Notes: a model not told the origin generated them from the letters alone. Positions 2,636 to 61,419 are shown, counted from the first letter of the stretch. The stretch is DNA of 64,000 nucleotides from Desulfobacteraceae bacterium (GCA_013792055.1 VMSQ01000314.1:8876-72875), one strand, 5' to 3'. Translations and numbers: made by a program.

Positions 2636-4531
2636 ATGCTCAGATTTCTACGACAAAGTGCCACTAGCTGGCTAATCAAAATAATATTAGGTGCAATTGT
2701 TGTTGTATTTGTTTTCTGGGGTGTTGGAAGTTTTCGCTCACAACGGAAAGACAGAGTAGCATTGGTCAATGGTGAAACTATTAGTTCAGAAGAATATATG
2801 GAAGCATACAACAACATTATTGAACAATTACGTCAGCGATTAGGCAATAATTTAAATGACGATATGATAAAAATGCTTAATGTAAAAAGCCAGGCTCTAA
2901 ATATGCTGATAGATAAGAAACTGATGCTTCAGGAAGCAACAAAGTTTAATTTAAGGGTCACAGACAATGAGCTTGCAGATGCAATAAGACAAATAGAAGC
3001 ATTTCAGACAGATGGTAAATTTGACAGCCAAATTTACAAGAATACCTTAACTCGTAACAGGCTAACTCCCGAAGAGTTCGAACTCATTCAGAAAGAGGCA
3101 ATGATTACTGAAAAAATAAGATCATTCATATTAGGCAATGTTAAAGTTTCTGAGCAGGAAGCAATTGAATGGTTCAAATGGGAGAATACATCAGTCAACG
3201 TTGATTTTGTACTTTTTGAGCCCGACAGATATGACGATATTAATCCGACTATAGATGAAATAGGTTCTTTTTTTGAAGATAAAAAGGAATCTTATAAAAC
3301 TGATGCAATGGTTAAAGTCCGTTTCCTGCGCTTCGACCCTGATGCATATAAGTCAATGGTTGAAATAACTGATGAAGATATTCATGACCATTATGAAAAC
3401 AATATAGAAAATTTTAAAACTGAAAAAACCATAGAAGCACGACATATACTGATAAAACTCGACCCGATGTCCGATCCTGAAACAGTCGAAAAGAAAAGGA
3501 AATCAGCTCTTGATATACTTAAACTGGCCAGGGAGGGTATGGATTTTGCTGAACTTGCCAAACAGTATTCTGAATGCCCAAGCAAGGTCGAGGGTGGCTA
3601 TCTGGGAGAATTCAATAAGAATGCCATGGTAAAACCCTTTGCTGAAAAGGCTTTTCAAATGAAAGCCGGTGAAATAAGCGAACCCGTCAGGACCCGGCAT
3701 GGGTGGCATATTATCAAGGTCGAAAAGATAAATGAAGAAACTGTTATTTCACTTAAAGCTGCAGAAGATAAAATACGGAATAAACTTATAGAAGAAAGAA
3801 CAAAAAATCTGGCCTATGAAGAGGCTGAAGCAGTTTATGATGCTTCTTTTGAAGGAAATGATTTAATAAAAAATGCAGAGGCCCGAAACATTAATATAGT
3901 TACTACTGATTTTTTTACAAAAATTGATGGCCCGGAAACAGGAATGAAAAATAGCTCGGCATTTGCATCATATGCATTTAATCTGTCACTTATGGAAATC
4001 GGTAAGATACAGGACTTTGAAGATGGATATTACATTGTCCAGCCTATCGAAAAAATACCTGAAAAAATACCTGACCTAAAGGATGTTGAAGAAAAAGTCA
4101 GGATTGATTTAATAAGACAAATGCAGGACGAGAAAGCAAATAAATATGCTAATGAACTTCTGGTTGCTTTAAGAGATAACAAGTCTTTTGATGCAGAATG
4201 CAAGAAGCTTAATTTGGATGTAGCTACCACCGGCTTTTTTAAGCGGAATAGTTCTATACCGTACATTGGATTTGAGCAGGAAATCTCGCAGGCGGCATTC
4301 AAGCTTTCAAATGAAAATATGCTCCCGGAAGCCCCGATAGAAGGGGAAAAAGGATATTATATTATCAGATTCAGGGATAGAAAAGAGTCCGAACTAAACG
4401 GCTTTGAAGAAGGAAAAGAAAAGATAAAAGACAAATTGCTTAAACAAAAGATGCTTAGAACTTTTGATGCATGGCTTTCAACCATACGGAATAAAAGCAT
4501 TATATCAATCGAAAAAGGTTTTGGAGAGTAA
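2636..4531 (+). CDS. ppiD: periplasmic chaperone / peptidyl-prolyl isomerase PpiD-like
   Basis: 631 aa. It has an N-terminal membrane anchor (LIKIILGAIVVVFVFWGV), a SurA-N-like region and a parvulin rotamase block (ARHILIK ... GGYLGEF ... TRHGWHIIKV). The size and architecture fit PpiD. Confidence 0.8.
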   Translation: MLRFLRQSATSWLIKIILGAIVVVFVFWGVGSFRSQRKDRVALVNGETISSEEYMEAYNNIIEQLRQRLGNNLNDDMIKMLNVKSQALNMLIDKKLMLQEATKFNLRVTDNELADAIRQIEAFQTDGKFDSQIYKNTLTRNRLTPEEFELIQKEAMITEKIRSFILGNVKVSEQEAIEWFKWENTSVNVDFVLFEPDRYDDINPTIDEIGSFFEDKKESYKTDAMVKVRFLRFDPDAYKSMVEITDEDIHDHYENNIENFKTEKTIEARHILIKLDPMSDPETVEKKRKSALDILKLAREGMDFAELAKQYSECPSKVEGGYLGEFNKNAMVKPFAEKAFQMKAGEISEPVRTRHGWHIIKVEKINEETVISLKAAEDKIRNKLIEERTKNLAYEEAEAVYDASFEGNDLIKNAEARNINIVTTDFFTKIDGPETGMKNSSAFASYAFNLSLMEIGKIQDFEDGYYIVQPIEKIPEKIPDLKDVEEKVRIDLIRQMQDEKANKYANELLVALRDNKSFDAECKKLNLDVATTGFFKRNSSIPYIGFEQEISQAAFKLSNENMLPEAPIEGEKGYYIIRFRDRKESELNGFEEGKEKIKDKLLKQKMLRTFDAWLSTIRNKSIISIEKGFGE

Positions 4532-4543
4532 TTCTATAATAAT

Positions 4544-4729
4544 GAGACCTTTGAAAAATGTTCAATTTTGTTCAAGTTCAAGGAAGGTGAAAATTTTAAC
4601 CGGAGGAATATATTGAATATTTCGAGGATAGCGCTAAAGCTTCACTCCGTGCAAAATTTGAGCCTGACGCTGGCACGAAGTGAAGCTTTAGCGCTATTTG
4701 GGCAAAAGGGGGCGTTTTTCAAAGGTCTC
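4544..4729 (+). repeat. structured intergenic repeat, copy A (with nested extra palindrome)
   Basis: Terminal inverted repeats GAGACCTTTGAAAAA / TTTTTCAAAGGTCTC. The core TTCAAGTTCAAGGAAGGTGAAAATTTTAA...TATTTCGAGG...AAAATTTGAGCCTGACGC is shared with 7154-7300 and 10590-10732. It also carries a perfect 19-bp inverted repeat ATAGCGCTAAAGCTTCACT / AGTGAAGCTTTAGCGCTAT that the other copies lack. Confidence 0.85.
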
Positions 4730-4741
4730 ATAGTTTGGAAT

Positions 4742-5410
4742 CTATCTTGCTATCATAGCTCTCATCATATCACCAGCATTTTCAGCATGATCTGCAATGG
4801 ATCCAATTATTTCAGCCAATCTAACCATATGAAATATTGTAACGGGATCAATATTCATATTAAGTATCTTCGCTTTTATCATTGCTTCAACTTTATCTGC
4901 TTCATGCTCCTGCCGGCGAAGATTTCGGATAATATCCTTGACCAGTGTTCTTTGTTTTTCTGAAAAATTTTTAAAATACTTTCTCGCCTCTGATACCATA
5001 TCGCTCAATTCTTCGATAGGATCAATATTCGCATCTACAAGAAGGAAAAAATCCTTATGAAGTTTTTCCGGAATACCTGGTTCGCTCCTAAATGATAACC
5101 AGTCCAGAGCATCCTCTACTGCATCAAGAACGGCATCTTGTTCTCTCAAGTATCTGAATATCTGAAACTTATCTACCGGCATCAAAGTGCCTTTCGGGAG
5201 ATGCCCTCTGATACGACGTTTAATGACATCTGCCTCTCTTTCCATTCGAATAACATCCTGCCTGAATTCTTCAAAAGTTCCGCATTTGTGTGCAATATGG
5301 CACTCTATAGCCTGCTGAAAAGCCCATGCACATTCTTTTACCTTTTCCGCATGTTCCTGCAATCCATCAAATGGAGATGCTATAAACATAGACATAAATG
5401 GTATTCGCAT
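4742..5410 (-). CDS. DUF47 / TIGR00153-type PhoU-like phosphate transport regulator
   Basis: 222-aa helical protein immediately downstream of, and co-directional with, a PiT transporter gene (11-nt gap). This pairing is conserved for DUF47 proteins. The sequence style (FDGLQEHAEKVKECA...) fits the family. Confidence 0.7.
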   Translation of the reverse strand: MRIPFMSMFIASPFDGLQEHAEKVKECAWAFQQAIECHIAHKCGTFEEFRQDVIRMEREADVIKRRIRGHLPKGTLMPVDKFQIFRYLREQDAVLDAVEDALDWLSFRSEPGIPEKLHKDFFLLVDANIDPIEELSDMVSEARKYFKNFSEKQRTLVKDIIRNLRRQEHEADKVEAMIKAKILNMNIDPVTIFHMVRLAEIIGSIADHAENAGDMMRAMIAR

Positions 5411-5421
5411 AGCTCTATCCT

Positions 5422-6648
5422 TTATAAAATGAGTTGAAGTACTTTAAAAATTGCCATACTGGTTAAAGCTGAAGCAGGTACGGTTAAAACCCAGTATAAC
5501 ATAATTTTAAAGACTATTCTAAAATTAACTGCTTCAATACCTCCTGCAAGCCCAACACCAAGCACACCGCCTACTGCTGCATGGGTAGTAGAAACCGGAA
5601 GTCCCATTTTTGATGCAACCAGCACCGTTGTTGCAGCAGCAAATTCAACAGCAAAACCTCGGGTATTGCTTAACGTAGTAATTTTTGTACCAATGGTTTC
5701 CATTACACGATGGCCGGCCATTGCTATGCCGCAGGCGATGCCTATTCCGCCAAAACAAAGGAGAAAAACCGGAACCGGCACGGTGGCTCCAACATTTCCT
5801 GTTTTTACAATAAAATATATTAATGCAAGAGGTCCTATTGCATTGGCCACATCATTTGCGCCCTGCGATAGGGCAACATAGCAGCATGTTCCAACCTGGA
5901 TACGCTTAAAAATATCTTCTGCGGTACTTGTCGATTTTTTCTTAATGTAACGGGATAAAAGATTTTTGCATACTATACCCAAAAAAATTGAAAGAACCAA
6001 CGAAATAGCTAATGCTGCCGGAGTTTCAATGGAAAGATTTTTGCCAAGAGGAGTCTTAAAAAGAAATGACAAAATAACAACGAAAAGAGTAATTCCTACA
6101 AAAAAAGGTGATAAATTAAGGGCTCTACTAAATTGGTTTTTCTTGGAAAGTATTAATTTAACAATGATCTTAAAAATTATAAATGCTATGACAATACTGA
6201 AAAAAGGAGAAATTATCCAGCTCAATACCACAGCTCCAAGTTTATCCCATTTGATTACTGAAAAACCGCCTGCCATTATTCCAAAACCAATCATAGAGCC
6301 GACAATCGAATGAGTTGTTGAAACCGGCAGAGATTTCCATGTTGCAAAACTGATCCACAAGCCTGCTGCCAGCATAGCCGATAGCGCTCCAATCAAAGCC
6401 ACATGAGGATCTGAAAGAATTTCGGTTGAAACAATACCGTTACGAATCGTATCTGTAACATGCGAACCAATAAATGTTGCACCAAGTATATTCAATATCC
6501 CGGCAATAAATACTGCCTGACGTATTGTTATAGCTTTGGCTCCCACAGCAGGCGCCATAGAGTTGGCCACATCATTTGCACCTATATTCCAGGCCATATA
6601 AAAACCAAAGATATAGCCGGCAACAAGTATAAAAGACTCTGAAATCAT
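5422..6648 (-). CDS. pit: inorganic phosphate transporter, PiT family
   Basis: 408-aa polytopic membrane protein with the duplicated PiT signature GANDVAN (NIGANDVANSMAP and SQGANDVANAIGP). Confidence 0.9.
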   Translation of the reverse strand: MISESFILVAGYIFGFYMAWNIGANDVANSMAPAVGAKAITIRQAVFIAGILNILGATFIGSHVTDTIRNGIVSTEILSDPHVALIGALSAMLAAGLWISFATWKSLPVSTTHSIVGSMIGFGIMAGGFSVIKWDKLGAVVLSWIISPFFSIVIAFIIFKIIVKLILSKKNQFSRALNLSPFFVGITLFVVILSFLFKTPLGKNLSIETPAALAISLVLSIFLGIVCKNLLSRYIKKKSTSTAEDIFKRIQVGTCCYVALSQGANDVANAIGPLALIYFIVKTGNVGATVPVPVFLLCFGGIGIACGIAMAGHRVMETIGTKITTLSNTRGFAVEFAAATTVLVASKMGLPVSTTHAAVGGVLGVGLAGGIEAVNFRIVFKIMLYWVLTVPASALTSMAIFKVLQLIL

Positions 6649-6690
6649 AGTAAATTCTTAGGGAATTACATAAATATAGTAAAATGATTT

Positions 6691-6749
6691 TTGAACCGCA
6701 ATAGCGAGCGCATTCCCCGTAGCCAAGCTACAGGGAATCTTAAATTTTA
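6691..6749. repeat. 32-nt repeat plus hairpin (second copy at 56021)
   Basis: TTGAACCGCAATAGCGAGCGCATTCCCCGTAG is identical to 56021-56052. Here it continues into the hairpin ATTCCCCGTAG-ccaag-CTACAGGGAAT. Confidence 0.75.
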
Positions 6750-6986
6750 TTACAGTAGTATATCGCAAGGTGCATGAATAACAATTCCAAAATGGGACAT
6801 ATCACTACGTAAATATCAAATCAATTTAAAAAAATAGCATTATTTACCATAGGATTATAAAGAAGAATATTGAATTCCGATTAAAAAATATTTTTTCTTT
6901 TTTAACTAACAGATTTTGTTGACTTTTAAAAAAGCATATATTACTACTCTCAAGAAAATATAAGCTTTAAAGAGACTTATTGGACA

Positions 6987-7356
6987 ATAAAGACTTCACC
7001 TGCCAAGAAAAAATTAAGCAAAAAGAAAAAAACAGCTATTGACGCTGTTCTTGAAGTCGTTAAAAAAAAGCAAACAAGGAGCAACAATTGCAACGCTGAA
7101 AGGAAAAACCGGTTTTGATTCCAGACAGCTCAGCAACGCTCTTTATAAACTATATAGTGCCTGAACGAAAACTAGAAAATTTTTTCAAGTTCAAGGAAGA
7201 CGCAAATTTTAACCACAGGAATACATGGAGTATTTCGAGGATTAAAATTTAAGCCTGACGCAGAAATTGGGAAAATTAGCAGTTTTTGTTCAGGCACTAT
7301 CTAAGAGAGATATGATTGCATCTAAAACACGTGGCGTTTATATGATGAAGAAATAA
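6987..7356 (+). pseudogene. disrupted small lysine-rich, winged-helix-like ORF
   Basis: The conceptual product is KTSPAKKKLSKKKKTAIDAVLEVVKK / SKQGATIATLKGKTGFDSRQLSNALYKL / SKRDMIASKTRGVYMMKK*. To read through it needs (i) a 1-nt frame change in an A8 run (7062-7069) and (ii) removal of repeat copy B (7154-7300). There is no canonical start codon in frame (ATA at 6987). A terminator follows. Confidence 0.5.
7154..7300 (+). repeat. structured intergenic repeat, copy B (inserted in the small ORF)
   Basis: Same core as copies A and C, but the terminal inverted repeats are ATAGTGCCTGAACGAAAAC / GTTTTTGTTCAGGCACTAT. These differ in sequence from the A/C termini yet still pair with each other. 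Confidence 0.85.
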
Positions 7357-7396
7357 CGATTCAACTACGTGTTAGACTAGTTTCTTGAAGCAGTTG

Positions 7397-7451
7397 CAAA
7401 AAGTCTTCAGAGAGCCTATAGTGTTAATATAGGTGCGCTGGAGACTTTTTT
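7397..7451 (+). terminator. hairpin plus T-run terminator after the disrupted small ORF
   Basis: AAAAAGTCTTCAGAGAGCCTATA-gtgttaa-TATAGGTGCGCTGGAGACTTTTTT. The stem is long and imperfect and is followed by T6. Confidence 0.5.
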
Positions 7452-7594
7452 CTTTAATAATCATTCATTAAACTTCTTTATATGGTTTCTATGCCCATCT
7501 CTGTTTTACTTTTTTTCATGAAATTTTTGACACCTAATTATTAAAAATATATTCGACGGTTTTGAATTTTGCTAAGTAAGTACGAAAGGATTAA

Positions 7595-8029
7595 ATGATG
7601 TCAACTGACATTCAGACTCTCAAATCATTAGATCTTTTTGCCGATCTAAATTTTGGCGAGCTGGAAAAGATCGCCTCATTAATGCACATGATGAAAGTCA
7701 CAGAAGGAGAAGTCTTAACACGAAAGGGCGAGCCGGCCCGTACTTTTTTCATTGTTTTGTCAGGCAATTTTATGCTTTCATTTAAAAAGGACCGCTCGTT
7801 CACCTTGCACAATAAAGGTAATATTATTGGCTGGTCAACGGTTGTTACCCCTTTCCAGTATAGAGGCACAGCAATAGCACTTACGGACGGTCTGGTGCTG
7901 TCGATGCCGGGCCAGGAGTTTTTGCGTCTTATTCAAAGTGATTCAACGCTTGGTGACAAAATCATGCGAAAAATCAACAAAATAGTATCAGAAAGAATGC
8001 CTTATACAACAGGGACTTGGAAAGATTAA
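7595..8029 (+). CDS. cyclic nucleotide-binding domain protein
   Basis: 144 aa consisting only of a cNMP-binding beta-barrel-like domain (LFADLNFGELEKIA ... GEPARTFFIVLSG ...). No DNA-binding domain is attached. Confidence 0.65.
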   Translation: MMSTDIQTLKSLDLFADLNFGELEKIASLMHMMKVTEGEVLTRKGEPARTFFIVLSGNFMLSFKKDRSFTLHNKGNIIGWSTVVTPFQYRGTAIALTDGLVLSMPGQEFLRLIQSDSTLGDKIMRKINKIVSERMPYTTGTWKD

Positions 8030-8184
8030 TAAATTTTATCATTTCTATCTATTGCTTGATCAAACAGTTACGTCAATGTTATAAGTTCTGATGTTTTCAG
8101 CGTAATGATTGTAATTGTATAGATTTTACTTTAATAGGTTTCTTAATATTATAAATATAATGCTTATTATCCAGGGAGGCATAA

Positions 8185-8616
8185 TTGTTCGGCTTTGAAG
8201 CAATAATAGCCCATAACGGCTGGGGCATTTCTCTTGTTGGAATATCAATAGTCTTTACAGGTCTTATACTTCTAGCTCTTGCAGTTGCCCAGATTCACAA
8301 GATAATTGAACTGTGGGATAAAAGGCATCGCTTTAAAAAACCACGACAAAAAAAAGAGAAAAAGGAAGCGACGGTCCCGGATCTGACTGTATCTCAAGAC
8401 GTTCAAAGGGCTTCACGTCAGTTCAAGCTTTTGATTGAATGGATTGGCGAACCATTTCCGCTTCCAAAACTTCTAGATCTTTCGGAAAAATGCGGGCTTT
8501 CACGCCCACATTCAACTATTAATGAATTAGTTAAGTGCGAATTAATCATACCAGATGGAAACGGTTATTTTATATGGAACAAAGAGAAATTTAGGGATTT
8601 AGGAAAAAAGGAGTAG
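8185..8616 (+). CDS. OadG-like small subunit of a Na+-translocating decarboxylase (tentative)
   Basis: TTG start behind GGGAGG. The N-terminal single TM helix (GISLVGISIVFTGLILLALAVA) resembles OadG/GcdD-type gamma subunits, and the gene lies directly upstream of the beta subunit gene. The C-terminal ~90 aa are unassigned. Confidence 0.45.
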   Translation: MFGFEAIIAHNGWGISLVGISIVFTGLILLALAVAQIHKIIELWDKRHRFKKPRQKKEKKEATVPDLTVSQDVQRASRQFKLLIEWIGEPFPLPKLLDLSEKCGLSRPHSTINELVKCELIIPDGNGYFIWNKEKFRDLGKKE

Positions 8617-8626
8617 TGCTTAATCA

Positions 8627-9757
8627 ATGAATGATCTGTTAATACAGTTTTTATCTAATACCGGCTTTGCGTTAGCTGACTACCGTCATATAATAATGAT
8701 TCTGGTTGGTATAATAATTATTTATCTTGGAGTAGCAAAACAGTATGAGCCGCTTTTGCTTGTACCGATAGGCTTTGGTATGTTGATTGGGAATATCCCG
8801 GTATTTAAGGATTTTGGTCTTGGAATCTATGAAAGCGGAAGCTTTTTGAACTATATATATTATGGCGTAACGCATGATATCTATCCCCCATTGATTTTTT
8901 TAGGTATTGGTGCATTAACTGACTTTTCCGCGATGCTGGCGCGACCTGTATTAATGCTTTTAGGGGCCGCTGCTCAGATCGGTATTTTTGCTACTTTTTT
9001 GGGGGCGCTTGCAATAGGATTCCCCCCAAATGAAGCTGCATCCATCGGCATTATCGGAGGCGCCGACGGACCTACTGCGATTTTTCTTACTGTCATGCTT
9101 GCTCCAAGACTATTAGGACCCATTGCTGTAGCGGCATATTCCTATATGGCCCTGGTGCCGGTAATCCAGCCTCCTATTATGAGACTTCTTACAACTCGTA
9201 AAGAACGGCTCATTAGGATGGAAGAGCCCCGTGAGGTATCAAAGACAGAAAAAATTATTTTCCCCATTGTCGGCTTTTTGCTTTGCTGTTTTTTGGCTCC
9301 TGCCGCATTGCCTTTGCTTGGAATGCTGTTTTTTGGAAACCTCCTAAAGGAATGCGCTGTTGTAGAACGTCTTGCTAAAACCGCTAGAACGTCTTTGATT
9401 GATATTGTAACTATATTATTGGGCGTAACAGTTGGCGCAAGCACCCAGGCCGACGTATTTTTGACTCCTCAATCTATCGGCATTTTTGCGCTGGGTGCAT
9501 TTTCTTTTGCTATTGCAACAGCATCCGGAGTTATATTCGCAAAATTCATGAATCTCTTTATGCGAAAAAAAATCAATCCTCTTATAGGCGCCGCAGGAGT
9601 ATCGGCTGTTCCAAATTCTGCAAGGGTTGTTCAGATGGTTGGACAACGAGAGGACCCAACAAACTTTCTCCTTATGCATGCTATGGCGCCTAACATTTCC
9701 GGTGTTATAGGTTCAGCAATTGCAGCAGGAATTTTATGGGGCTTTATGAGTTCTTGA
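8627..9757 (+). CDS. sodium ion-translocating decarboxylase, beta subunit (OadB/GcdB/MmdB family)
   Basis: 376-aa polytopic membrane protein with the family-typical size and blocks (PIGFGMLIGNIP, IGIIGGADGPTAIF, GAAGVSAVPNSARV). Confidence 0.85.
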   Translation: MNDLLIQFLSNTGFALADYRHIIMILVGIIIIYLGVAKQYEPLLLVPIGFGMLIGNIPVFKDFGLGIYESGSFLNYIYYGVTHDIYPPLIFLGIGALTDFSAMLARPVLMLLGAAAQIGIFATFLGALAIGFPPNEAASIGIIGGADGPTAIFLTVMLAPRLLGPIAVAAYSYMALVPVIQPPIMRLLTTRKERLIRMEEPREVSKTEKIIFPIVGFLLCCFLAPAALPLLGMLFFGNLLKECAVVERLAKTARTSLIDIVTILLGVTVGASTQADVFLTPQSIGIFALGAFSFAIATASGVIFAKFMNLFMRKKINPLIGAAGVSAVPNSARVVQMVGQREDPTNFLLMHAMAPNISGVIGSAIAAGILWGFMSS

Positions 9758-9861
9758 AATTGGTTGACAAAATTTTTTAAAGTTTTTATTTTTTGCATTA
9801 ATTAAAAATATTCAATTTCTGTCATTATATAAAAAAGTCTAAGAAGGTCGGAGGAAATATT

Positions 9862-10563
9862 ATGCTAGTTAAAGGATGGCTATCAAGTCAGGTGATTTCA
9901 GTTGACGAGGAAACTTCTATGATGAAGGCTTATGTCCTGATGAAAGAAAACAATATCCGTCGTCTTCCTGTAGTCCAAAAAGGAAAATTGGTAGGAATCG
10001 TTACTGATACTGATTTAAAAGAAGCCTGTCCATCAACGGCAACTACCTTAGATATATATGAAATAAATTATCTTTTATCAGAAATTAAAGTTAAGGAATC
10101 AATGTCAAAGGACGTAATCTACGTCAAACCCGATGAAACCGTCGAATTTGCAGCGATCTTGATGCTCGAAAACAAAATTTCAGGGCTCCCAGTAGTAAAT
10201 GATCAGGGCAATCTGATAGGAGTTATAACTCAAACAGATATATTCAAAGCGCTGATACATATTTCAGGAGCTTACATTGGCCATATTCAGCTTGCCCTTT
10301 GCCTGGAAGATAGGCCAGGATCGATTAAAGAGGTGGCCGATGTAATTCGAAGTTTTGGCGGTCGCATGGTTAGTATTTTAACCAGTTATGGCCTCGCAGA
10401 TGAAGGTTACAGGAATGTTTACATTCGCATTAAGCCTTTGGAACGAGAAAAACTATCTCAAATGGTCGACATACTGGAAGACAGATTTACAGTGCTTTAT
10501 ACTGCCAAAGAATCACTTGAAGAGGAAAAAGACAGAAGATTTCTCAAAAAATCAAGACTATAA
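9862..10563 (+). CDS. CBS-pair plus ACT-like domain protein
   Basis: 233 aa. Two CBS motifs (IRRLPVV..GKLVGIVTDTD and ISGLPVV..GNLIGVITQTD) are followed by a C-terminal ACT-like region. Paralogous in architecture to 49335..49946. Confidence 0.75.
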   Translation: MLVKGWLSSQVISVDEETSMMKAYVLMKENNIRRLPVVQKGKLVGIVTDTDLKEACPSTATTLDIYEINYLLSEIKVKESMSKDVIYVKPDETVEFAAILMLENKISGLPVVNDQGNLIGVITQTDIFKALIHISGAYIGHIQLALCLEDRPGSIKEVADVIRSFGGRMVSILTSYGLADEGYRNVYIRIKPLEREKLSQMVDILEDRFTVLYTAKESLEEEKDRRFLKKSRL

Positions 10564-10589
10564 GTAGCCATTCACATGGTTCAGGGTTA

Positions 10590-10732
10590 GAGACCTTTTG
10601 AAAAATGTTCAATTTTGTTCAAGTTCAAGGAAGGCGAAAATTTTAAATGCAGGAATACCTTGAGTATTTCGAGGCTTAAAATTTGAGCCTGACGCCAAAA
10701 TTGGGCAAAAGGGGGCGTTTTGCAAAGGTCTC
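10590..10732 (+). repeat. structured intergenic repeat, copy C
   Basis: GAGACCTTTTGAAAAATG...core...CGTTTTGCAAAGGTCTC. It is flanked on both sides by inverted GGTTCAC-type heptamer motifs (10571-10589 and 10733-10757). Confidence 0.85.
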
Positions 10733-10843
10733 GGTCGGTCGGCTTTTAACCGTGAACCTAAGCAGTTACGAAGCCTTCTACCTTTTTATAAAATTTCTTT
10801 CCTATTACCACATGCCTAAAGCCGGCTGTGCGCTGATTTATTC

Positions 10844-11029
10844 TCATTTCTCGGCATTGCCCCATTCTTCATCAGACGATTGACTTACAAACCATATCTG
10901 GCATGACGTCCTGAATTTACAATACATTTCGGGATCACGGCATACAAAACACTTCTCGCACAAATATATATTATGCTTAGAACATATAATTTCTGTTTCT
11001 CGGTCAGGATGATTTATACATTTCCCCAT
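10844..11029 (-). CDS. small Cys/His-rich protein, B-box-like zinc finger
   Basis: 61 aa, CINHPDRETEIICSKHNIYLCEKCFVC, giving the spacing C-x2-H-x8-C-x7-C-x2-C. Confidence 0.5.
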   Translation of the reverse strand: MGKCINHPDRETEIICSKHNIYLCEKCFVCRDPEMYCKFRTSCQIWFVSQSSDEEWGNAEK

Positions 11030-16179: not shown

Positions 16180-16227
16180 GGTTCACAGTTCAAGGGTTCA
16201 AGGTTAAAAGCCGACTAACCGTGAACC
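16180..16227. repeat. GGTTCAC-heptamer hairpin after rtcB
   Basis: GGTTCACAGTTCAAGGGTTCAAGGTTAAAAGCCGACTAACCGTGAACC. The ends GGTTCAC/GTGAACC pair. The motif family recurs at 10571-10589, 10733-10757, 37860-37898 and 61381-61406. Confidence 0.65.
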
Positions 16228-37859: not shown

Positions 37860-37898
37860 GGTTCACGGTTCAATGGTTCACGGTTCAAGGTTAGAGAG
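37860..37898. repeat. tandem GGTTCAC/GGTTCAA heptamer block upstream of lnt
   Basis: GGTTCACGGTTCAATGGTTCACGGTTCAAGGTTAGAGAG. Confidence 0.6.
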
Positions 37899-61073: not shown

Positions 61074-61199
61074 GACGGCAAAGTAAAAAGCTTCAGTTTC
61101 AAGGCGCGCAAATACTGAGGAAAGAGACGTACTTATAGCTACGTCGCAATGACGAAGGATGCAGCGCAACACAGAAAATGGACTTTTTACGAAGCCGTC
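61074..61199 (+). repeat. diverged member (copy D) of the structured repeat family
   Basis: The outer stem GACGGCAAAGTAAAAAG / CTTTTTACGAAGCCGTC is a third sequence version. The interior begins CTTCAGTTTCAAGGCGCGCAAATACT (compare TTCAAGTTCAAGGAAGACGCAAATTTT) and ends ...GCAGCGCAACACAGAAAATGG (compare GACGCAGAAATTGGG). Confidence 0.5.
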
Positions 61200-61419
61200 A
61201 AGCATAAACCAATAAATTCCGATGGCATTGGGTACATAATAATTTTCAACAGTATAAATATAATATATTATTGTCAATGAAACTTGCCTGAATTTTAAAC
61301 AAATTGTAATTATCAAATTTATTCCCCGACGTTTCCCTTGCATTATAAGAGTTTTCAATTATAATTTAAATATATCTCGTAACCGTGAACTGTGAACCTG
61401 ACAACCTGGGTAGTTACAA

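Follow-up and report, generated by a model that had tools for sequence, protein, structure and literature searches.

A stretch of 64,000 nucleotides from a Desulfobacteraceae bacterium (GCA_013792055.1 VMSQ01000314.1:8876-72875), called the window here and numbered from its first letter, contains three copies of a hairpin repeat, which we interpret as independent insertions of a non-autonomous DNA transposon, that is, a MITE (short for miniature inverted-repeat transposable element), with a selected, strand-specific fold. We put the probability of this interpretation at roughly 80%. The family is mobile and moved recently, on the timescale of genomes differing at about 13% of nucleotides; its members fall into end classes with target-site duplications (TSDs), the core helices covary, one strand folds better than the other, and the elements are mosaics of a common core and different ends. 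The initial annotation, made on the copy at 10590-10732, had described a conserved core with exchanged but still complementary outer stems, and had favored a selected structure, such as a small RNA or the substrate of a HUH-type single-stranded DNA (ssDNA) system, over an ordinary MITE. The three copies are as follows.

4544..4729, + strand: copy A, class C1 MITE (GAGACC...GGTCTC), 186-bp long variant, covariance model score 80.9 bits
7157..7297, + strand: copy B, class C2 MITE (GTGCCTGAACGAAAAC...GTTTTTGTTCAGGCAC), 141 bp, 148.6 bits
10590..10732, + strand: copy C, class C1 MITE, 143 bp, the repeat first noted, 158.7 bits

The core motifs TTCAAGTTCAAGGAAG, AGGAATAYNTNGARTATTTCGAGG and AAAATTTRAGCCTGACGC occur exactly three times each in the 64 kb, on the + strand only, and shuffled sequence gave 0-0.14 matches for the two longer core patterns. 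These counts confirm that three same-strand copies have a common core. The ends of copies A and C read GAGACCTTT(T)GAAAAA / TTTT(T/G)CAAAGGTCTC, and those of copy B, different but again self-complementary as had been claimed, read (ATA)GTGCCTGAACGAAAAC / GTTTTTGTTCAGGCAC(TAT). The reported compensatory change in the apical hairpin was also found, with GAATAT/ATATTT in copy A and GAATAC/GTATTT in copies B and C. Copy B is a member of the repeat family, but its limits had been set too wide, at 7154-7300: the ATA and TAT at its ends belong to the TSD TATATA/TATCTA, and the element proper is therefore 7157-7297.

We then scanned one genome per GTDB species for the pattern GTTCAAGGAAG, followed after 46-76 nt by AGCCTGACGC, which are two conserved loops of the core. 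The scan listed at least 117 DNA stretches, of which 110 were true family loci; chance matches in unrelated coding sequence were removed. Retrieved loci are labeled with L-numbers, and all counts of copies, classes and genomes given here are counts among the matches listed. At least 112 true copies were found in at least about 64 species-representative assemblies, nearly all labeled Desulfobacterales, Desulfobacteraceae, Syntrophaceae, Thermodesulfobacteriota or Deltaproteobacteria, with a few single matches in otherwise labeled bins. Multiple copies per genome are frequent, and more than one class may be present in one genome. Without inserts the unit measures 141-143 bp, and inserts lengthen it to as much as about 200 bp; its GC content is 35-46%. 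The copies are mostly intergenic (90/112 of those listed are clear of predicted open reading frames, ORFs), and no ORF is conserved across classes; a 13-codon ATG frame is limited to one class, C1, and was rejected as a coding function. Searching PLSDB plasmids and GenBank phages by BLAST with copies C and B gave no match, and a pattern scan of IMG/VR gave 4 matches, all of them chance matches in coding sequence. In the literature on MITEs in Desulfobacter or sulfate reducers we found no paper describing this family.

Grouping the copies by their ends gave three classes, each with its own outermost sequence.

Class C1, GAGACCTTTGAAAAA...TTTTGCAAAGGTCTC (begins GAGACCTTTG): 64 copies listed
Class C2, GTGCCCGAACGAAAACT...AGTTTTCGTTCAGGCAC (begins GTGCCCGAACGAAAAC): 17 copies listed
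Class C3, GTGTCCGTCCAGAAAT...ATTTCTGGATGGGCAC: 16 copies listed

The remaining 15/112 copies listed could be assigned to no class, and rarer end types exist besides C1-C3. C1 elements are flanked by 5-bp duplications, perfect in 27/64 copies and with one mismatch in 15 more, compared with 0.7 when flank partners were shuffled; the duplicated 5-mers are AT-rich and without consensus. Around C2 and C3 elements a 6-bp duplication lies before GTG and after CAC, perfect in 6/16 and 8/15 copies, respectively, compared with 1.5 and 1.1 after shuffling. These 6-mers are mostly TANNTA, but TCACTA, GAGGTA and TTGTTA also occur, indicating that this is a true 6-bp duplication. The flanks of the three window copies are listed below.

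4539..4543 (left, ATAAT) and 4730..4734 (right, ATAGT): TSD of copy A, one mismatch
7151..7156 (left, TATATA) and 7298..7303 (right, TATCTA): TSD of copy B
10585..10589 (left, GGTTA) and 10733..10737 (right, GGTCG): TSD of copy C, degraded

With 3/5 bases identical the copy C duplication is weak alone, and in this case insertion is shown by an empty site. Collinear relatives with about 87% nucleotide identity were obtained by scanning metagenomes with the neighboring CBS-domain protein, and were compared by BLAST and inspection of the junctions. Copy A was missing, with contiguous flanks, in L124, L126, L128 and L132, the empty site in L124 being TCTATAATAAT|AATTTG. The filled site of copy B, AAAC-TATATA-[GTG...CAC]-TATCTA-AGAG, corresponds to AAAC-TATCCA-AGAG in L124 and AAAC-TATCAA-AGAG in L132. 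Copy C was missing from L126, where the empty site reads GGGTTA|CTCGGCTTTT. Conversely, at a position where the window is empty, L124 carries a separate copy flanked by a perfect TAAGA duplication, and L125 has the same insertion plus a second, inverted copy.

Taken together, the family consists of small non-coding units with terminal inverted repeats (TIRs) and TSDs, dispersed in copies with insertion polymorphism and mostly present as intergenic stem-loops. MITEs are under about 500 bp in size and lack coding capacity. Prokaryotic MITEs are AT-rich and mostly intergenic, and their transcripts are predicted to form stable stem-loops (PMC10969869). Of the defining traits given in that recent review, all those open to testing here were observed except a cognate insertion sequence supplying the transposase, the search for which is described below. 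The view that the repeats are not an ordinary MITE was therefore not borne out: there are few end classes, each has TSDs, and every window copy is missing from a collinear relative, which are findings that the initial annotation itself had named as speaking for plain MITE subfamilies. Because both TIRs must fit one transposase, pairing of the outermost ~20 nt is not evidence for RNA structure. The proposed selected structure accordingly does not extend to the outer ends, where pairing is expected, but for the interior, which does look structurally selected, it was supported by covariation, helix replacement and strand asymmetry.

The element is mosaic in build. In the outer 22 nt the class consensuses of C1 and of C2 or C3 are 41-50% identical, and those of C2 and C3 62-68%, whereas between classes P2, the helix inside the ends, is 80% identical and the core outside the columns fixed by the scan pattern 93-95%. 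Calling the outer stems exchanged was therefore apt. The usual MITE pattern is inverted here, the interior being near-identical between classes and the transposase-recognized ends not. Within a class, core and ends are 85-91% and 82-90% identical, respectively. Every class begins GnGnCC and has the same length, and the class ends may be distant homologues; judged from these sequences, one recent core joined to different ends would explain the contrast better than uniform divergence. The insertion common to L124 and L125 at the same site, a single pair, is 162/164 identical (98.8%), compared with 70% and 79% for the flanking spacers, about 89-90% for the adjacent genes and 78.5% for third codon positions.

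To describe the core, 75 standard-length copies were aligned. RNAalifold predicted P2, P3 and the apical hairpin, and the structure was completed by hand to 30 pairs. In copy C the core is delimited as follows.

10618..10707, + strand: conserved core of copy C, from the consensus structure and pair counts of 75 copies

Its parts are P2, the loop GUUCAAGGAA, P3 (formed by GGCGAAAAUUUUAA / UUAAAAUUUGAGCC and including a tandem G.A), a loop GCAGG/CGAGG, an apical hairpin with the strands GGAAUAC/GUAUUUC, and a further loop, UGACGCAGAA. In the 75 copies 97.2% of the core helix cells are paired, compared with at most 58% when the 3' partner was slid to other registers, and 10 pairs have changes on both sides. 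Covarying cells, which come from related copies and are not independent events, numbered 86, compared with 19.6 +/- 3.4 in shuffles, and 0/500 shuffles reached any of five measures. Helices P2 and P3 as well as the apical stem showed covariation. The core also conserves three (A/C/G)AGG(A) motifs at a spacing of about 22 nt. For each of the three window copies a single long, interrupted hairpin is predicted, and relative to shuffles its stability corresponds to z = -11.7 for A, -11.1 for B and -6.0 for C.

A covariance model built from the 75-copy alignment, a step that the initial annotation had also proposed, found relatives in the same loci independently of the scan pattern. The model alignment that included distant relatives mixed both strands and was left out of the counts. 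The divergent relatives are listed below.

L065:279-419: divergent relative with other ends, GACTCTGTTGATTTA...
L110:1333-1474: divergent relative with other ends, GAAGCCATCTCAAAA...
L100:2458-2607, L104:706-829 and L113:3872-4012: relatives with differing helices
L012:1879 and L124:6815: subfamily with an entirely different P2
Window 61074..61199, + strand: tentative distant relative, 126 bp, ends GACGGCAAAGTAAAAAG...CTTTTTACGAAGCCGTC, covariance model 18.4 bits, E = 0.014-0.027 (weak)

In the divergent relatives P3 has been swapped wholesale with its complementarity kept (AAAAUUUUAA/UUAAAAUUU; AAAAAAAUAA/UUAUUUUUU; GGAUCAA/UUGAUGC; GCGAAAGC/GCUUUCGC; AUGCAG/CUGCAU). The overall fold is the same, and the unpaired motifs remain: YCAAGG lies on the 5' side and RACGCAG on the 3' side, with GCAGG and YCGAGG flanking the apical stem. 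The element at 61074-61199 has the motifs UCAAGG-CGCGC...GCGC-AACACAG and an overall fold like that of the family (z = -4.1), its flanks show no clear target duplication, and on these sequence features it may be a distant member.

The two strands differ in folding. The predicted RNA of the + strand was more stable than that of the - strand in 79/79 copies, with mean energies on + and - of -57.5 and -36.8 kcal/mol for C1, -52.3 and -45.6 for C2, and -60.1 and -41.6 for C3. The same was found for 8/8 lineage consensus or single sequences, divergent ones included, and DNA parameters gave the same direction (-27 to -31 kcal/mol on + vs -20 to -26 on -). Among the window copies, the RNA fold energies were -85.1 kcal/mol for copy A, -56.5 for copy B, and -52.7 on the + strand vs -30.8 on the - strand for copy C. 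The core helices contain 267 G-U cells vs 20 A-C. Among departures from the Watson-Crick majority there are 71 G-U and 20 A-C, which counts against a strand-blind DNA process, because such a process predicts 1:1.

These results have to be weighed against a simpler explanation, in which the family is a plain, functionless MITE, that is, a long imperfect palindrome whose pairing is kept by the fit to the transposase and by intrastrand template switching. The near-identical core would then reflect recent ancestry and recombination between MITE families, and the G-U excess a founder effect. This explanation is possible, though we consider it doubtful. The target duplications, empty sites and end classes are as it predicts, and several further observations favor it or otherwise weigh against a selected fold. 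The G-U pairs are largely inherited from few founder sequences; conservation within a class is not higher in the core than at the ends; and the covariation was counted over related copies, so that the shuffle result is not a probability. GTTCAAGGAAG and AGCCTGACGC were fixed by the scan pattern, so that part of the invariance they show across the 112 copies stems from the sampling. The 98.8% identity in L124 and L125 could also be caused by gene conversion or repeated insertion. The extra arms of copy A abolish P3 in the predicted fold, indicating that the canonical fold is not obligatory, and the small GC-rich hairpins inserted at various positions in some copies indicate that hairpin 'replacements' are not all compensatory evolution. 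No sigma-70-like promoter or intrinsic terminator was found inside the copies. Between co-directional genes 12 copies are sense and 30 antisense (10 vs 22 with stricter ORFs, p = 0.05), so that the strongly folding strand is not favored in mRNA; mild counter-selection of a strong hairpin in transcripts fits these counts as well as anything else. Orientation had no association with local GC skew or the overall coding strand (47/90).

The search for an autonomous partner also weighs against our interpretation. Across 1.5 Mb of retrieved loci, neither orphan ends nor inverted GnGnCC ends 0.7-3.5 kb apart led to an autonomous element whose ends match, and half-element nhmmer profiles found truncated copies only. 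When 495 ORFs (minimum length 250 aa) from the genome-scan loci and the window (~0.8 Mb) were clustered all against all, no multicopy transposase-like ORF emerged, the sole multi-locus cluster being sigma-54 activators. The transposases would then act in trans from genes encoded elsewhere, and are probably of the DDE type. Duplications of 5-7 bp are probably produced by IS1634 and by some ISNCY groups (ISDol1 from Desulfococcus, ISLbi1); in the literature on ISDol1 nothing relevant was found. What a functionless palindrome does not readily account for is that the + strand is the more stable one in every copy and in lineages with unrelated outer stems, that G-U and A-C deviations depart from 1:1, that the conserved loops are asymmetric and unpaired and thus beyond palindrome correction, and that the insertion common to L124 and L125 is far better preserved than its flanks.

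The covariation, the conserved loops, the regularly spaced (A/C/G)AGG(A) motifs and the strand-specific fold would also suit a stand-alone structured non-coding RNA gene family, a small RNA with its own transcription signals that looks repeat-like through many paralogues. This is very unlikely, and the suggestion of a small RNA in that sense is largely refuted by the empty sites: the copies differ in presence between genomes as insertions, are flanked by target duplications and have no conserved neighbors, no promoter or terminator was found in the element, and about half of the copies are antisense to their neighbors. The proposed Rfam search returned no family at gathering score or E <= 10 (4227 models; window 4400-10900 for E <= 10). 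Still less probable is a substrate of an ssDNA transposase or recombinase (HUH, IS200/IS605-like PATE, REP/RAYT, integron attC-like) whose hairpin is recognized as ssDNA. The + strand hairpin is more stable with DNA parameters as well, copy C lies within the loop of another hairpin repeat, and the fold of reconstructed target sites is slightly better than that of mismatched flank pairs (-7.6 vs -7.05 +/- 0.26, a weak trend). Variable 5/6-bp duplications together with true TIRs are hallmarks of DDE-type integration, and IS200/IS605, REP and attC elements are not known to have them; their presence here excludes the HUH-type system put forward initially, including an IS200/IS605-derived PATE, which would insert beside a fixed tetra- or pentanucleotide. 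Moreover, the elements have no GTAG/CGTC head and no R/L boxes, and orientation follows no local GC skew.

Other candidates were rejected on individual features. REP sequences are palindromes of 20-40 nt with a GTAG or CGTC head (PMC3733652), and REP/BIME was dismissed since our elements are at least 141 bp and their ends start GAGACC or GTGYCC. Integron attC sites have R''/L''...L'/R' boxes (RYYYAAC...GTTRRRY) and stand in cassette arrays; attC does not apply, since GTTCAAG is unlike GTTRRRY, the copies are separated by housekeeping genes (PHO4, the oxaloacetate decarboxylase beta subunit and MoeA among them), and duplications are present. A hammerhead or other ribozyme was rejected because the order of CUGACGC and GAAA is wrong and Rfam gave no match; a classical K-turn, because the tandem G.A is present but the 3-nt bulge is absent; and a sigma-54 promoter in the TGGCACG arm, because the -12 element is absent. 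An IHF site was rejected by eye. A CsrA sponge is at most speculative, the GGA motifs being GGC in distant relatives.

We therefore retain the transposon with a selected, strand-specific fold. It could operate as follows. Class-specific TIRs of ~20 bp would be recognized in trans by transposases encoded elsewhere, and integration duplicates 5 bp (GAGACC class) or 6 bp, preferentially TANNTA (GTGYCC...GGRCAC classes). The cargo between the ends is the conserved module of ~90-110 nt. On the + strand only, module and ends would zip into one long interrupted hairpin, with P1 formed by the ends, followed by P2, an internal loop, P3, the GCAGG/CGAGG loop and the apical stem-loop; the internal loop is purine-rich, with GUUCAAGGAA opposite UGACGCAGAA, and P3 would hold the tandem G.A. 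No fewer than three kinds of ends, and probably five or more, have become attached to the same core, which gives the look of exchanged outer stems; selection on the single-stranded form would keep the fold. That form would most likely be RNA made by read-through from neighboring genes, serving as an orientation-dependent signal for processing, stability or protein binding; alternatively, it would be the + DNA strand during transposition or replication. From our analysis, action at the RNA level, like that of Correia or ERIC hairpins, appears most likely. The purine-rich loops with their (A/C/G)AGG(A) motifs could be a protein-binding platform, for example a decoy for an RNA-binding regulator or nuclease. 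The full proposal, that the core is cargo with a function as a structured nucleic acid (RNA being the likeliest), which repeatedly took the ends of different transposon families, was spread through Desulfobacterota genomes by several unrelated or diverged transposases and came under purifying selection after insertion, is tentative and in our judgment rather unlikely as a whole.

Among known systems the family is likest RNA-hairpin MITEs such as Correia, ERIC and BOX, and what is uncommon is a structured core across several end classes. Correia elements (CREE/NEMIS) of Neisseria are MITEs of ~100-160 bp with inverted ends, a TA duplication and many intergenic copies in one genus, and their transcripts form long hairpins that affect neighboring mRNAs. 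Our family resembles them in size, inverted ends, target duplication and intergenic copies, but there is no sequence similarity, 5 or 6 bp are duplicated, one core occurs with several end classes, and at least about 64 Desulfobacterota species are involved. ERIC/IRU elements of Enterobacteria and Vibrio are imperfect palindromes of ~127 bp with a single end set and with size variants made by internal insertions at fixed positions; they are transcribed, and the effects of their hairpins on mRNA depend on orientation. To our knowledge, a strand-specific G-U excess and a core common to end classes have not been described for ERIC. The imperfect palindrome is common to both families, whereas sequence and hosts are unrelated and ours has several end sets; ERIC/IRU elements are reviewed in PMC3184786. 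BOX, RUP and SPRITE of Streptococcus pneumoniae and QMITE1/2 of Coxiella are small modular mobile repeats with very stable predicted transcript stem-loops (PMC10969869). They differ from our family in sequence, hosts and presumed transposases, and BOX modules are tandem (A-Bn-C) rather than helices nested round a core. Like structured RNAs in Rfam, the core has helices with compensatory changes and conserved loops, but it is mobile and without conserved synteny.

Tn3-derived TIMEs are also non-autonomous and share the 5-bp duplication with C1. Tn3-family repeats are about 38 bp and begin GGGG, whereas C1 begins GAGACC; a TIME was rejected because no end starts GGGG and the 5-bp duplication is limited to C1. 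The C2 end AGTG(CCT)GAACGAAAACT (for example, window 7156-7176) resembles over 15 nt AGTGGAACGAAAACT, presumably within the inner part of the Tn3 38-bp inverted repeat, and the core CTGACGC presumably occurs in that repeat as well. Given the different position and arrangement, this likeness is probably coincidence.

All three window copies are intergenic, in a neighborhood of ~39% GC with ordinary bacterial genes, which include those for a PpiD-like chaperone, a PhoU-like protein, a PHO4 transporter, oxaloacetate decarboxylase subunits (including beta), a CBS-domain protein and MoeA. A tRNA-Ala (GGC) at 2151-2226, - strand, is the sole Rfam or ARAGORN match in the window. The two extra complementary arms of copy A enclose AAAATTTGAGCCTGACGC and are listed below.

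4630..4652, + strand: optional left arm AGCGCTAAAGCTTCACTCCGTGC, extra module of copy A, pairs with 4671-4695 in the predicted fold
4671..4695, + strand: optional right arm TGGCACGAAGTGAAGCTTTAGCGCT, extra module of copy A, complementary to 4630-4652

Elsewhere the left arm occurs without the right (L034, L038, L087, L098), the right without the left (L007, L013, L021, L037, L095, L100), and other copies have neither. At the left end of copy A (4536-4565, - strand) an outward promoter-like site, seen in this one copy only, combines TTGAAC of the element with TATTAT of the flank (9/12 matches, 18-nt spacer); hybrid promoters of this sort are a known product of insertion sequences.

Some further repeats and neighbors were observed. 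A small GC-rich hairpin, TCC(G/A)CCTGAGGCGGAT, replaces the apical stem in L098:6695-6860 and lies inside the 5' strand of P3 in L062:1069-1220, and other short GC-rich hairpins occur in copies of L086, L016, L093/L066 and L040. These (compare the mini-hairpin TCCGCCTGAGGCGGA) could represent tiny insertions distinct from the element, either mobile or templated. L049:798-842 is a 45-bp derivative with both C1 ends and ~10 nt inside each (GTGACCTTTGAAAAATGTTCAATGGGGATGTTTTGCAATTGTGAC), the core being wholly deleted. The window also holds a second, shorter hairpin repeat family, GGTTCAC(A/G)GGTTA...TTAACCGTGAACC, with 11 pattern matches vs 0.8 expected, which looks REP- or terminator-like. Its sites are 10570-10589 with 10746-10758, and also about 1636, 16180-16227, 37860-37894 and 61379-61398; copy C sits inside the loop of one such hairpin, which is whole at the L126 empty site. 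In five or more loci, genes for sigma-54-dependent activators (AAA+ enhancer-binding proteins) end at, or at most about 100 nt from, a copy of class C2 or C3, in either orientation (L056:3060-4415, L069:710-2590, L090:4038-5498, L094:3585-4982 and L106:2678-3769; also L014 and L104). This adjacency probably reflects the abundance of these genes together with the TANNTA/TAG target preference.

For the Desulfobacterales and Syntrophales, which are known mostly from metagenome bins, these results define a MITE superfamily that is abundant and whose ends and lengths of duplication are known, and cultured carriers such as Desulfonema exist. Annotation may benefit, as hairpins of 141 bp could pass for terminators or small RNAs and certain copies are found at contig ends or are cut off by them, and the insertion polymorphisms can serve as markers between close strains. 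Should this pattern of conservation and folding reflect selection on an RNA, the family would stand as a clear example from bacteria of a transposon whose cargo is a spreading structured RNA.

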